64,000 bases of DNA from a virus. The translations under genes were made by a program, and so were the position numbers. Where the stretch lies: the IMG/VR virus record IMGVR_UViG_3300028585_000019, positions 26,975 through 90,974 of that record; one strand, written 5' to 3'. Shown here in pieces: positions 833 to 52,936 of this stretch. The notes under the pieces were generated by a model. It saw nothing but the letters and a program-made list of their open reading frames with translations. It was not told where the DNA came from and did no database searches. Positions within the stretch are counted from its first letter, which is position 1, and each line of letters opens with the position of its first letter.

Positions 833-862
833 TTGACAATAATAGAGAAACAATGTTAAAAT
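833..862 (+). promoter_or_regulatory. sigma70 promoter with extended -10, upstream of the candidate sRNA
   Basis: TTGACA-18-TAAAAT with TG at 854-855. Confidence 0.65.
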
Positions 863-868
863 GTACGC

Positions 869-1035
869 ATAAGGGAGAAGAAAAGATATGAGTATTCTCC
901 CACGAATTCTAGAGCATTCTTCTCTGTTGATGTATTGATTAACTGCCCTCTCCTCAGTTAGTCAGGTGATGCAGAGAAGGAAGCCGCCCTTCCATGTGTT
1001 GTAGCGTAAGCTCCTGTGGAAAGGGTGTTTTATTT
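869..1035 (+). ncRNA. candidate structured small RNA (~165 nt)
   Basis: Own promoter; stems at 873-901, 917-981 and 986-1026 (the last with a GTAA tetraloop and a T-rich tail); no ORF longer than 16 aa noticed. Confidence 0.55.
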
Positions 1036-3873: not shown

Positions 3874-3902
3874 TTGACAAGGCAGTTATTATTTAGTATA
3901 CT
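3874..3902 (+). promoter_or_regulatory. sigma70 promoter ahead of the endonuclease-terL-head operon
   Basis: TTGACA-17-TATACT. Confidence 0.75.
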
Positions 3903-4051: not shown

Positions 4052-5452
4052 ATGAATATTAGTATCGGAGATGTATTTTCACGTCTCACAGTTATTGAAA
4101 AAGCCGAGGACAAGACTTCTCCTGGCGGAAGGGTTCGTAAGTACTGGTTGTGTAAATGTTCGTGCGACAGAAATAAAACTCTCGAAGTCCGATCTGATAG
4201 CCTTACAGGTGAACGAGTCAGAAGTTGTGGGTGTCTCAGAGATGAGACGGCTCGTAAGATGCGGACTGGTCAGCCACCAAAAACTGTTAGACCTTTGCCT
4301 AGCCTTGCTGGTAATGTCTATGGTTTGCTTACTGTTGTAAAGCAAGCTGAACCTACTGAAACTCCTAAAGGGAGGAAGATGCCTAGGTGGGAATGCTCCT
4401 GTGAATGTGGAGAGACTGCTATTCTTTATCATGAACGACTTCGTAATAAAGAATACGTTTCTTGTGGGTGTGTCTCTAAAAAATCATATGATGCTGGATT
4501 CAAAAGTGCAACAGAGGGGTTTATTAGTAAAGCTAAAGAAGTTCATGGTGACAAATATGACTACTCTCTCACTTGCTTTGAGAGTTCTCGAAAACATGTA
4601 ACTATTTTGTGTAAGACTCATGGAGAGTTTAAACAAATTTCTGCTAATCATCTAACAGGAAACGGTTGTCCGCGTTGTGGAGTTGAAAGTAGGGCTGATA
4701 CCCTTGAAACTTTTATAGTAAAATCTGAGATTCTACATTCTAATGTGTATGACTACTCTAAAGTGGATTTCATCAGTCCTACAGAACCTGTTACTATTAC
4801 ATGCAAAGTACATGGAGATTTTGAGCAAAGACCTAAGACTCATTTAGGCGGTTTGGGTTGTCCTTTATGTAGCAGAGAGTCCGTTCTTAGTAATAGAGAA
4901 GAAGAATTTATTCGCCGTTCTATAGAGAAACATGGTGATAGGTATGATTACTCAGAAGTTGTCTATGAGGACGTACGTATCCATGTGAAAGTTGGATGTC
5001 CTTCTCACGGCACATTTCTACAAAGGCCTGATATTCACATGTTAGGTAGTAAATGTCCGAAATGTTCTTCTGAGGAGAGGGCTGCAAAACAACATTGGGA
5101 TTATCTGGAACGCTGCAAACTAGATCCTAAGCTTGCAAATTCGCCCGCTGTTCTGTACTTATTAAAACTTAATGACAACTTTGAATGTTTTCTTAAAGTT
5201 GGAATAAGTTCCTCTTTTAAAAGAAGGTTGTCTCACTACAAGGAAGAGGGGTTAGACTTTGAAGTTCTAGAAGTTGTTAATACTACAGCAATTCAGGCCG
5301 CATTGCTTGAAAGGGAAACTCTGAAGTATATTAGAGAATCTAGTATTAGATATATCCCTAACAAAATATTTGCAGGTTGGACAGAGTGTGCAACTCTAGA
5401 AAGTAAAGATCAACTTCTAGAAATTTTTAAGGAGCTTAGTAATAATGTCTGA
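4052..5452 (+). CDS. putative homing endonuclease with multiple Zn-ribbon (DUF723/CapR-like) repeats and a C-terminal GIY-YIG-like domain
   Basis: Two WxCxCxC(G)...SCGC modules; three HGxxYDYS...CxxHGxF...GCPxC repeats; LKVGIS...GWTE C-terminus. Confidence 0.75.
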   Translation: MNISIGDVFSRLTVIEKAEDKTSPGGRVRKYWLCKCSCDRNKTLEVRSDSLTGERVRSCGCLRDETARKMRTGQPPKTVRPLPSLAGNVYGLLTVVKQAEPTETPKGRKMPRWECSCECGETAILYHERLRNKEYVSCGCVSKKSYDAGFKSATEGFISKAKEVHGDKYDYSLTCFESSRKHVTILCKTHGEFKQISANHLTGNGCPRCGVESRADTLETFIVKSEILHSNVYDYSKVDFISPTEPVTITCKVHGDFEQRPKTHLGGLGCPLCSRESVLSNREEEFIRRSIEKHGDRYDYSEVVYEDVRIHVKVGCPSHGTFLQRPDIHMLGSKCPKCSSEERAAKQHWDYLERCKLDPKLANSPAVLYLLKLNDNFECFLKVGISSSFKRRLSHYKEEGLDFEVLEVVNTTAIQAALLERETLKYIRESSIRYIPNKIFAGWTECATLESKDQLLEIFKELSNNV

Positions 5453-50500: not shown

Positions 50501-51139
50501 AAGATCAGCTACAGAGATATTAGCCTTAACGTCCAAGATGTTGTAATAAAGCATATCTGGCCCGAACTTCTCAAAGCGAGCATCTTTGGGTACGTGATAG
50601 CGGAACTCCATCTTCTTGTCGTCACCTTTGGATGCCAAGTTATCCAAACTGTGGCCGCCAAACCGATCAGGATTCAGCACCTTGCTGCGAATCATCGTAT
50701 CGTCAAAGTTTACAACTTTACCAGCCCAGCGGTCATCACCGATAGGAGTATTCATCCCGCACTCAACTTTATAATCAACACCATAGTATAACTTGATGGC
50801 GAGTAAATCATAATTAATCTGGTTATGGGCTATGACGGTGCTGTTCTCAGGCAACCACGCAAGAAACTTGATAAAGTCATCCAGCTTGCGGTGTGTATAG
50901 TCTAAAGGTACATAATCTTTGAATACATAAGAGTGCTGACCAAGGTCAATATTGAAAGGATTGCCTTGGGTGAAGTCAAACTTCTCTCCATCATGAAAAC
51001 CAATAATCTTATTATCAAAGATAACAACAATACAGTGAATTTTATAACTATCTTTGAGCTTATATGGTACAGATGTATAATCAATAGACGACTCATTCAG
51101 AAGATTCGTCGCCTCAATATCCCAAGCAATCTTTTTCAC
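47567..51139 (-). CDS. polA: DNA polymerase family A with 3'-5' exonuclease, intein-containing
   Basis: WDIE, HNQINYD and YNILD exonuclease motifs; YDFSSLE motif A; AKNVKYG|CTYG motif B; LNSLLQ; MHDE motif C. Confidence 0.93.
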   Translation of the reverse strand: MKKIAWDIEATNLLNESSIDYTSVPYKLKDSYKIHCIVVIFDNKIIGFHDGEKFDFTQGNPFNIDLGQHSYVFKDYVPLDYTHRKLDDFIKFLAWLPENSTVIAHNQINYDLLAIKLYYGVDYKVECGMNTPIGDDRWAGKVVNFDDTMIRSKVLNPDRFGGHSLDNLASKGDDKKMEFRYHVPKDARFEKFGPDMLYYNILDVKANISVADLLDEEMKIWDWNDKWHPALKLEKQVAELITRQEHRGFHFDKELAEENLKNLDQMMEERRVKIEAILPPRPATKSFLKDYTPPKLQFKKSTGEPSANMLKFAEKLGAIIEETDAGYMFNWNGKIMPLPLPAEQALVAEMRATINDTTHIKEWLVGLGWKVLEYKEKDLTVGTGKIKLPPEKLKATIDRYIEQTVNSNFMFDRMDFLEIPYKKNITKDQARVKLQNYFSKRMERNGGIKVQTNPSFTTGQEKEVCKNLKTLAESSDELRCITDITEYLTYRHRRNSILGGGVSFEDFEDDTDEQSANGYLANLREDGRIPTPAGTCDAATSRMRHRICVNVPRSTSLFGEQMRGMFRADASVSWQLGYDFSSLEAVIESHNCYQYETDPDKSYCNSLVQEKPNDVHTKMSKRISEIIGQDFGRSPAKNVKYGCLPTDTTEILTDSGWKKFDEVFEGVRVLGYNAERGANEWTTVKQTHFYKDAYVKHFGHTNWSVEATLDHRWYGMVLKQYGNKATAIKVIEPRVFTTEEIKQTHYILNTAPYVGGSSSITPDEAALVAWVLADGYYCWSEKEGGTSSSHGTKKGLVASISQAEHKYQSEIVRVLEANCMEYHTCVVKSDNTYKVTNYRLRAKTFRPFLDKVVGCRKQKHDVDWCAWILTLSKEALEAFMYAFWLADGDSKGNEEANAWRFKQNEGNIADALVLCGYLLGWNVTCRGKGKCKNIRFQKKRPHVTTQEFKHIGERYADVFCLTTGTDNFVIRQNGIVTITGNCTYGAQAAKVAKTIGAPLEVGQQVFDAFWQAAEPLALLKDALKREWEGKFQKKRILGIDGRLVPTRSAHAILNSLLQGGGVVCAKKVMVYHDRFAEKEGYIVDFFKDELTKDRKYWQQMIAMHDEAQGEVDKGSVKFRLFKTEQEAIDFKKAQREVWGDVQHSDKGWFVGYCRQGELMAMAVEAVNKDFSMNMPLSAGYVLGLDWHMCH
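48197..49213 (-). mobile_element. intein with LAGLIDADG endonuclease (339 aa) in polymerase motif B
   Basis: Begins CLPTDTTEILT; block B ATLDHRW; AWVLADG and AFWLADG; VFCLTT...NF; ends ITGN before +1 Cys. Confidence 0.9.
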
Positions 51140-52896
51140 TATTCCTCCAGTTCTACTAAAATTTCAGGGTGGTTCATTTTGTATTCTTCCCAGTCGTGTA
51201 GCTGACCAGTCTTGTAATCAAAGTATACCTCACAAGCGAGCCCTGTGCTAGAGGCATGTCGGTTCTTATGGATCGTAACTTTACTAACGTTTCGTAGGAT
51301 TGGGTTCTCGTGCAGCTTATCCCGCTCGATACTGATTGTCTGTGCTGCACTCTTCATTACAGTAGAAGATCCGATAATGTCGCTCTCTGTCAACCCCGAA
51401 GAGGAACCAGAGGCAAGCTTACGGGTGTGGCAAATCAAGTACACAGACAATTGCGGGTATTCTAGCACAAGCTTCTTCAGCCATGCAACAAAAGATTCTT
51501 GTTCTTCTAGAGAACAGCCAGCAACCAAATCAGAGTACGGATCAGCCACAAGCACCGTTACGCCAAGCTGAATGATCATCTCAAGAATACTTTCCTTAGT
51601 CCCCTCAATACCATCTCCACGAGAGTCATAAACATAGAAACGACTCTTGCCGGAGGGGTCTACCAGAAAGTCTTGTACTTTGCTTTTTACTTCTTCTTGT
51701 TGAAGATAATTTAGCCGATCCTCACCCTGCATAGCGTTCAGGTTTACACCTAGCGCCCTAGAGATAATGTTCGTTGCGTATTTATTCTTACTCGCCTCAA
51801 GACTCATAATACCCACAGTCTCGTGCGGCTCGTTCATAATTGTATGCGCAACAATAGTATCAACAAAGAGGCTCTTGCCCTGGCTTGTAGAGGCAAAGAT
51901 GACATTCAGCTCATTCTTCACCAAACCACCACCAAACATATCCGCAACTTTCTTAAGGAACGGTGGTAAGGATAGCCGTTCAACATTCGTATATTCCAGT
52001 GCTGCATCATACAGTGTGCTTGAGGCATGAACTCCACTTGGTGTCCAAGGCTTTGCAGCCCAGAAGTCGTTATACAGTTCGTCCTCTTTACCCTTCGCCA
52101 CATACTCATTAGGATCTTTGTAGCGCATAGTCATAACGAATACTTTACCACGCGGCAGGATCTTACATACTTTCTCTGCTGCTGCCTTCCCTGCTGCATC
52201 TGAATCTAGTGCCACAATGCAACGCTTAAACTGAGAGAAGAACTTGTAGTTAGCTTGAATCTGCTTGTACGCACCGGATTCTCCGATTGTTGGAGAAACT
52301 ACAGCGACTGGATTATATTGCTTATTCTTTTGCTTGTCCGAAAGAACTTGGAACAGACTGAGGGCGTCGATTTCACCGCCGACAATTACTACCGTATCAG
52401 CAAAAGTCTTAAAGCGTACTTGACCAAACAAATCCACATCCTTACCTGTCTCGCCAAAAGGATTTGGAAAGGATTTAACTTCTTTACGAATCTTGTATCC
52501 ACTCAGCTCATAGTCCTTTGTCGCAGGATAGTAACTCTCAGACACAGCTCCAGTATTGTCATCATATAGATAACGAACCCCATAGAACTTAGACGTTTCA
52601 TCACGAATGCCACGATAACCATTAGTTCGCATTCCTGTTTTTGCTTTAAGTTCAGCAAAAACCTCATCATTAAAAGGTTTACCCACTACGTTAATCTCCT
52701 CATCATCTTCAATTTCACCATGTTCGGCTAACCAATCATCACTAGGGATAGTGAACTCACAGCTCCAACAGTAGGCGCCCTTGCCTTCTCCGTAAACATG
52801 CAAGTTATTCCTAGAACGATCATTACCATTTTTAATACACCTTGGACACCCCGTCTTATGTTGATGAGATAGATCAATTCCGTATTTATTACTCAT
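51139..52896 (-). CDS. T7-like primase-helicase
   Basis: CPRC/CWSC Zn finger; TOPRIM GGEIDA, DSD.AG and KDPNE; Walker A STSQGKS; H.RK; KNR. Confidence 0.93.
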   Translation of the reverse strand: MSNKYGIDLSHQHKTGCPRCIKNGNDRSRNNLHVYGEGKGAYCWSCEFTIPSDDWLAEHGEIEDDEEINVVGKPFNDEVFAELKAKTGMRTNGYRGIRDETSKFYGVRYLYDDNTGAVSESYYPATKDYELSGYKIRKEVKSFPNPFGETGKDVDLFGQVRFKTFADTVVIVGGEIDALSLFQVLSDKQKNKQYNPVAVVSPTIGESGAYKQIQANYKFFSQFKRCIVALDSDAAGKAAAEKVCKILPRGKVFVMTMRYKDPNEYVAKGKEDELYNDFWAAKPWTPSGVHASSTLYDAALEYTNVERLSLPPFLKKVADMFGGGLVKNELNVIFASTSQGKSLFVDTIVAHTIMNEPHETVGIMSLEASKNKYATNIISRALGVNLNAMQGEDRLNYLQQEEVKSKVQDFLVDPSGKSRFYVYDSRGDGIEGTKESILEMIIQLGVTVLVADPYSDLVAGCSLEEQESFVAWLKKLVLEYPQLSVYLICHTRKLASGSSSGLTESDIIGSSTVMKSAAQTISIERDKLHENPILRNVSKVTIHKNRHASSTGLACEVYFDYKTGQLHDWEEYKMNHPEILVELEE

Positions 52897-52936
52897 CCAC
52901 CCTCCCACTTATTTACCTAAATGCCTATTCTATAAG

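Follow-up and report, generated by a model that had tools for sequence, protein, structure and literature searches.

The window analysed here, a stretch of 64,000 nt at the right-hand end of a phage record of 90,974 bp, includes a structured RNA (core at positions 908–1036, inferred transcript of ~168 nt, three helical domains) that represents an undescribed RNA family. As judged by its surroundings in related phages, the RNA is the first cistron, or leader, of tRNA operons in phiPMW-like Pseudomonas phages. Its apical loop, CCCUCUCCU at 946–954, is the exact complement of a conserved sequence, AGGAGAGGG, at the ribosome-binding site of host ftsZ. The role that we favour, with a probability of roughly 55%, is that of a trans-acting, DicF-like repressor of host ftsZ translation, which would be cut from the tRNA-operon leader. 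The large terminase encoded by the window phage shares 76% identity with its counterpart in Pseudomonas phage vB_PsaM_M1, and 66% with the terminases of phiPMW and vB_PpS_SYP.

The extended −10 sigma70 promoter that an earlier note on this DNA had placed upstream of the RNA is present at 833–862 on the plus strand (TTGACA-18 nt-TAAAAT with an extended −10 TG, 11/12 match), and transcription would start near 868–870. It is one of five similar promoters within the first 4 kb of the window. The four others, near-consensus sigma70 promoters at 398–426, 1069–1097, 2193–2222 and 3874–3902, each precede a short transcription unit, and the promoter-rich first 4 kb looks like a densely promoted early region. 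Folding of 868–1040 gave −56 kcal/mol (z = −3.97) with an equally good fold in 0/200 shuffles, in agreement with the three-stem structured RNA described in the earlier note; as also stated there, a long ORF is lacking, plus-strand ORFs of ≥20 aa being absent from 868–1036.

All elements of the RNA lie on the plus strand. Its conserved core at 908–1036 was recognised by the covariance model of the family (R1) with 115.8 bits. An accessory 5' hairpin (873–879/895–901, spanning 873–901; GGGAGAA:UUCUCCC), which contains the start of a 16-codon ORF at 888, is carried only by the window copy and by two other members, L015 and L017. The core includes a conserved 5' motif AGAGCA at 911–916, the AGCA of which pairs with UGCU or UGUU after P1 in 9/18 members. 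In the fold of the window RNA, P0 and P1 together form 914–927/971–984, and the 5' strand of P1 proper is 919–927 (partner 971–979). The next segment, UGAUGUA at 928–934 opposite GUGAU at 966–970, consists of consecutive non-Watson-Crick pairs, including tandem G.A/A.G. It is followed by P2 (935–945/955–965), which is capped by the all-pyrimidine apical loop at 946–954 (also given as CCCTCTCCT), the proposed seed against the ftsZ site. Covariation and the fold assign 955–984 to the 3' strand of P2, the 3' side of the internal loop, the 3' strand of P1 and a linker. The P3 hairpin (985–998/1013–1027) has a large loop of 14 nt with semi-conserved UAGUG and CCUUC, and a U-rich tail at 1028–1037 follows.

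This tail is the T-rich end of the earlier note and may act as a partial terminator in the window phage. The U-rich run is indeed there, but efficient termination at P3 is doubtful given the 14-nt loop and the fact that P3 adjoins a tRNA gene in relatives, where in many members the first tRNA begins 0–6 nt past the point equivalent to the P3 end. An intrinsic terminator scan with criteria of a G+C-rich stem, a 3–8 nt loop and a U tract did not report P3 and the tail. Termination at P3 is not generally a property of the RNA family. Inspection by eye for a kink-turn showed the tandem G.A/A.G and a flanking U.U, but the opposite strand has 4–5 extra bases and departs from the standard pattern. 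A pseudoknot between the 5' AGAG and the CUCU of the loop was rejected, being weakened by tail variants in L015 and L143, and the AGCA-UGCU pairing was found instead in about half of the members. Stretches of the window copy resembling SRP RNA or complementary to 16S rRNA are without conservation in the family.

The family comprises 18 members (17 distinct), which were collected with nhmmer and the covariance model; the carriers are the Pseudomonas phages phiPMW and vB_PpS_SYP as well as uncultivated relatives. A search with nhmmer on terminase-linked loci of relatives gave weak matches in four phages, phiPMW among them, all located upstream of terL; a covariance model made from the first matches, together with pattern scans of IMG/VR and terminase-anchored metagenome loci, extended the set to 18. 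In the model-guided alignment, 30/31 base pairs are changed on both sides (9/9 in P1, with 92.5% of cells paired; 9/10 in P2; 12/12 in P3), and 91% of the cells are canonical, compared with 38–44% when the partners are slid by 1–3 columns. The observed values were reached in 0/500 covariation shuffles, in an alignment that was fitted to the model and hence favours the structure. An independent RNAalifold analysis of MAFFT-aligned seeds still showed 27/31 compensatory pairs, and the family is almost certainly real.

Of the points raised for checking in the earlier note, collection of homologues with covariation analysis and conservation of the loop in related phages came out in favour of a conserved RNA. 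With cmscan against Rfam 15, no family reached its gathering score over the whole window except tRNA-Arg, and 780–2260 had no match even at E values up to 10. ARAGORN left the RNA stretch unmatched in its tRNA/tmRNA search, its sole call being the tRNA-Arg at 1697–1773. Self matches were all that megablast and blastn retrieved from GenBank phages when three members were used as queries, a scan of IMG/VR (without the window's own record) for the exact loop pattern gave no match, the family was not found in the 151 Pseudomonas genomes searched, and the RNA is unmentioned in the phiPMW paper.

Conservation extends beyond the helices. In the internal loop, the G.A pair is invariant (18/18) and the A.G pair nearly so, and the U.U pair is replaced by C.C in L015, L143 and L128. 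In the apical loop, the hexamer UCUCCU is invariant, and the whole loop consists of pyrimidines in every member. Substitutions in this loop are few and are C to U only, never U to C, at positions that face G in the proposed target. Since U may form a wobble pair with the facing G, the match would be kept despite such changes, and the substitution pattern fits pairing to a purine target. The conserved internal loop, AGAGCA and the P3 loop motifs suggest a putative protein partner or a tertiary fold. In L014, L093, L047 and L070, AACAACAAA occurs directly after P3; it is absent from the window copy and resembles the Hfq/Crc 'CA motif' of Pseudomonas.

The genomic position of the RNA, which the earlier note had not recognised, is highly regular. 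In 17/17 relatives, a tRNA array on the same strand (1–11 tRNAs) begins 0–140 nt downstream of it, and the leading tRNA is not always the same (Trp, Gly, Tyr, Ile, Met, Phe or Asn). In each of the 13 relatives that were inspected, the corresponding position is occupied by a near-consensus TTGACA-17-TATAAT promoter, often with TG, a G+C-rich stretch past the −10 element and an A/T-rich tract upstream. The promoter before the RNA and the tRNA array after it thus define the RNA as the apparent leader cistron of the phage tRNA operon. There is one copy of the RNA per complete genome. The complete genome of the window phage has a single tRNA, tRNA-Arg(UCU) at 1697–1773 on the plus strand, whereas RNA-carrying relatives have 3–9; this tRNA is a remnant of the array that is headed by the RNA in relatives. 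Between the RNA and tRNA-Arg, a gene for a T5orf172/MUG113 (GIY-YIG-like) nuclease-like protein is located at 1132–1692 with its own promoter at 1069–1097. None of the eight related genomes compared has this gene, which therefore resembles a mobile insertion that has separated the RNA from the tRNA.

Immediately after tRNA-Arg, there is an ORF-free stretch of 380 nt at 1774–2161, which ends at a strong terminator (2135–2153) and has a folding z of −3.3; it has neither an Rfam match above threshold nor a homologue in eight related genomes. The order nuclease-like gene, tRNA-Arg, structured RNA in the window mirrors the order segB, tRNA-Arg, rnaD, rnaC in T4, with no sequence similarity. The genome of the window phage (G000) is a mosaic relative to G001–G003, G007 and G161–G165: its terminase is nearest to those of M1-like myoviruses (75–77%), and the phiPMW-like group alone shares its tail module and 15–17 further genes. 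M1-like phages are without the RNA, including one genome with four tRNAs, and no hairpin-displayed CCUCUCCU was found in relatives that lack the RNA. A search for a partner protein by presence and absence in five genomes with the RNA and three without gave 17 carrier-specific genes, mostly tail genes, among which no candidate stood out; this comparison is uninformative for a partner protein as the split follows phylogeny.

The case for ftsZ as target is based on the distribution of AGGAGAGGG, the complement of the loop. The 6.9-Mb genome of Pseudomonas piscis contains 13 copies, compared with 34 copies of a reversed-pattern control, and three further diverse Pseudomonas genomes contain 8–11 copies each. 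In P. piscis, one copy is located 3 nt before the AUG of ftsZ, the product of which was confirmed as FtsZ by its Pfam domains (Tubulin and FtsZ_C). A copy at the ribosome-binding site is common to orthologues in 4/4 genomes for ftsZ only, and all other copies are genome-specific. The pattern AGGAGAGGG-N2-6-ATGTTYGA has exactly one match in 191/201 sampled genomes of the host genus (189/199 without the unpublished genomes G109 and G166), and a control pattern has 0 matches. The distance to the ftsZ AUG is 2–5 nt, usually 3. At the family level, the pattern is present in 59/121 genomes of Pseudomonadaceae, where the ribosome-binding site of ftsZ differs by clade (GGAGAGGG, GGAGAGAGGG, GGAGAAGG(G), GGAGAAGAG and GGAGAAAGG). 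The ftsZ leader in Pseudomonadaceae also has a conserved block, GUAGGCGAAAAAACUAGAGAA, upstream of the ribosome-binding site.

Opening of the loop is predicted to cost 0.0 kcal/mol and opening of the ftsZ site 1.9–5.3 kcal/mol, and the 9-bp duplex would contribute −16.4 kcal/mol. Outside the 9-mer, the RNA and the conserved ftsZ leader showed no further conserved complementarity. As judged by the frequency of the 9-mer at ribosome-binding positions, about 2–6 genes per Pseudomonas genome or roughly 1 gene in 1000, the chance of finding it at ftsZ in particular is about 0.1%. When some 25 equally telling targets are allowed for, this chance becomes about 2–3%, which is low and not negligible, and four bases of the match are additional to the common AGGAG core. 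Two variants of the loop, CUCUCUCCU (L141 and L143) and CUUCUCCU (L015), exactly complement AGGAGAGAG and AGGAGAAG, respectively, which are natural variants of the ftsZ site elsewhere in Pseudomonadaceae. This agreement is only consistent with the proposed pairing, as any pyrimidine variant would find some purine variant.

These data may be combined into the following mechanism. Host RNA polymerase would transcribe the RNA early in infection from its strong promoter, which is similar to the promoters of stable RNA genes. Release of the RNA in relatives would probably follow from an RNase P cut at the 5' end of the first tRNA; in the window phage, with the nuclease-like gene inserted behind the RNA, the 3' end may arise by partial termination at the U-rich tail or by processing. 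The covarying P1–P2 stem would then display the fully accessible 9-nt pyrimidine loop, which would pair with the Shine-Dalgarno region of ftsZ mRNA and thus block binding of the 30S subunit, synthesis of FtsZ and cell division. Direct support exists for the family, its structure, position and promoter and for the exact conserved complementarity; accumulation of the RNA, its maturation and the repression of ftsZ are inferred. A trans-acting translational regulator had been suggested in the earlier note, and this appears to be the best-supported mechanism, with a pyrimidine loop that is probably functional; the candidate target, host ftsZ, was not named there.

Several observations do not sit easily with repression of ftsZ. 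A loop of 9 nt is unable to form all 9 pairs without strain, most members are without an Hfq-type 3' end, and the AGGAGA sites of the phage itself, with up to 7–8 nt of complementarity, could also be bound. Simple antisense action leaves the motifs of the internal loop, AGAGCA and the P3 loop unexplained, and some relatives with tRNAs (M1 and G003) are without the RNA. A more far-reaching version, in which the loop co-evolves with the host ftsZ site as a weapon of virulent phages against division, CUCUCUCCU and CUUCUCCU being adapted to clades with AGGAGAGAG and AGGAGAAG, is a tentative proposal from the loop variants that we would not expect to hold in full; the loop would then be a host-specific determinant, and tRNA-processing enzymes would be borrowed for maturation.

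A cis-acting role would also agree with the strict linkage to tRNA arrays: as leader of the tRNA operon, the RNA might render RNA polymerase insensitive to Rho-dependent or intrinsic termination over the untranslated array, in the manner of HK022 put or rrn leaders, direct processing or protect the 5' end, and its loops would be contacts for polymerase or other factors. The RNA directly follows a strong promoter, precedes a tRNA array in 17/17 relatives and adjoins the first tRNA with its P3 hairpin in many members, and non-helical motifs are conserved beyond the apical loop, all of which would suit such a leader. This explanation is nonetheless rather unlikely, given that the RNA is fully kept in the window phage though one tRNA is left, 660 nt off and behind an inserted gene with its own promoter. 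Moreover, phages with arrays can be without the RNA, a conserved boxA-like element is not present in the alignment, and a leader acting in cis gives no reason for a loop that exactly complements a conserved host ribosome-binding site. A cis-acting function in elongation, processing or stability and action in trans could coexist. A further reading is that of a protein decoy or scaffold, whose pyrimidine loop and tandem G.A loop would bind a protein of host or phage (Rho, a processing enzyme or one with KH or S1 domains, for instance), the ftsZ match being coincidental. The sequence conservation of the internal loop with its isosteric change of U.U to C.C, the all-pyrimidine loop of every member and the conserved AGAGCA and P3 loop motifs speak for this. 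It remains improbable, however, as the match to ftsZ would need a chance event of about 2–3%, the loop changes, few as they are, go only from C to U facing G, and the presence/absence comparison, confounded by phylogeny, offered no gene for the partner.

The loop could also be of a more general kind. AGGAG is the dominant ribosome-binding sequence of this genome, as the earlier note had claimed (upstream of 42/105 called genes), and since AGGAGA is the commonest hexamer upstream of the phage genes (30/105), the loop resembles an anti-Shine-Dalgarno sequence; it also shares CUCCU with the 3' end of 16S rRNA. An RNA that tunes translation or mRNA stability globally through many AGGAGA-type sites of phage or host would account for this, and in six phage genomes about half of the sites with ≥7 nt of complementarity are at ribosome-binding positions. 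Such an RNA would, however, compete with the phage's own translation, and the conserved CCC at the 5' end of the loop, which is rarely matched by phage sites, would be unexplained. No ribosome-binding site of the window phage carries the full 9-mer, and among the six genomes no phage target is conserved throughout, the best being the primase-helicase gene with 4/6; we consider a global role to be a poor candidate. The proposal of the earlier note that the transcript is a gated micropeptide messenger, with the 16-residue peptide MSILPRILEHSSLLMY encoded by the ORF at 888–938 under control of the 5' hairpin, draws on a GGGAG located 10 nt before the ATG at 888. This reading was removed, as the ATG and the frame are missing in L015 and L017, the other members that keep the 5' hairpin; most members are without the hairpin, and the ORF crosses covarying helices, so that a peptide is extremely improbable. 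The 13-nt complementarity between 945–957 and 5070–5082 that had been pointed out for the loop region is a perfect one, but matches of ≥13 nt to the window were obtained with 45/200 shuffled RNAs. The site at 5070–5082 is deep inside a homing-endonuclease-like gene, which is missing from relatives, and has no start codon nearby; hence the match was treated as chance.

Silencing of ftsZ by occupation of its ribosome-binding site is known for DicF (PMC5069750) and DinR (PMC10907235). Phage proteins that block FtsZ, such as lambda Kil (PMC3961180), are well known, and a 2025 review names DicF as the only phage-derived sRNA that acts on cell division (PMC12197685). DicF of the E. coli Qin prophage (RF00039) is phage-derived, is cut from a longer transcript and pairs with the ftsZ ribosome-binding site, and the window RNA is predicted to be alike in these respects. 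The two RNAs have no similarity in sequence or structure, and the RF00039 model found no match. DicF is 53 nt long with its seed in the 3' single strand, whereas the window RNA would be about 130–170 nt long with its seed in a hairpin loop; DicF belongs to the dicBF operon of a cryptic prophage in E. coli, and the window RNA to the tRNA-operon leader of virulent phages in Pseudomonas. DinR of Klebsiella pneumoniae is likewise a processed sRNA acting on the ftsZ ribosome-binding site (PMC10907235) but, unlike the window RNA, is chromosomal, SOS-controlled, Hfq-dependent and derived from a 3' UTR.

Processed stable RNAs other than tRNAs are known from tRNA clusters of virulent phages, namely rnaC and rnaD (species 1 and 2) of T4 and sRNA2 of PAK_P3 (PMC4933390, PMC10914365). 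Their genes are located within the cluster or at its distal end, whereas the present family is found at its head. With filters off, the best score of R1 on the T4 tRNA region was 8.9 bits, and nhmmer with rnaC and rnaD against 700–2300 of the window gave nothing significant; on PAK_P3 (KC862299, 83500–88097), R1 scored ≤10.3 bits, with no similarity to sRNA1 or sRNA2. A CCCUCUUA stretch of T4 rnaD was considered as a loop displayed in a like manner and was rejected, as it is not in a predicted hairpin loop. Processing enzymes also release a regulatory RNA from a tRNA precursor in the case of 3'ETS-leuZ, a host-encoded sponge of sRNAs that originates from a 3' spacer. The window RNA would be similar in its proposed release from a tRNA precursor but lies at the 5' side and is phage-encoded. 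The antitermination leaders HK022 put and rrn boxBAC are, like the window RNA, folded RNAs that follow a promoter ahead of untranslated genes; no sequence relation to them was seen, and the window RNA, in contrast, persists where the tRNA array is almost gone.

For very few small RNAs of virulent phages has a target been assigned. The present analysis contributes a new RNA family supported by covariation, a niche at the head of phage tRNA arrays and a single testable target in P. putida, which together with the cultured phages phiPMW and SYP provides a tractable system. Should the proposed mechanism be true, it would constitute convergent evolution of RNA-based silencing of ftsZ and would provide a function for one class of non-tRNA RNAs in phage tRNA clusters.

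The primase-helicase gene (Toprim and DnaB_C domains; 51139–52908, minus strand) has an internal GAGGAGA with an in-frame GTG just past the zinc-finger region. This internal start recalls the two products of T7 gene 4 (4A and 4B), and in relatives AGAGGAGAG is present at one candidate start or at both. In the P. piscis chromosome, the locus L204 (G010:C11:737642-740650) contains two copies of a C4 antisense RNA and a c4-a1b1 target element beside a chance AGGAGAGGG site; these elements constitute an immunity region of the P1/P7 type in a Pseudomonas chromosome.
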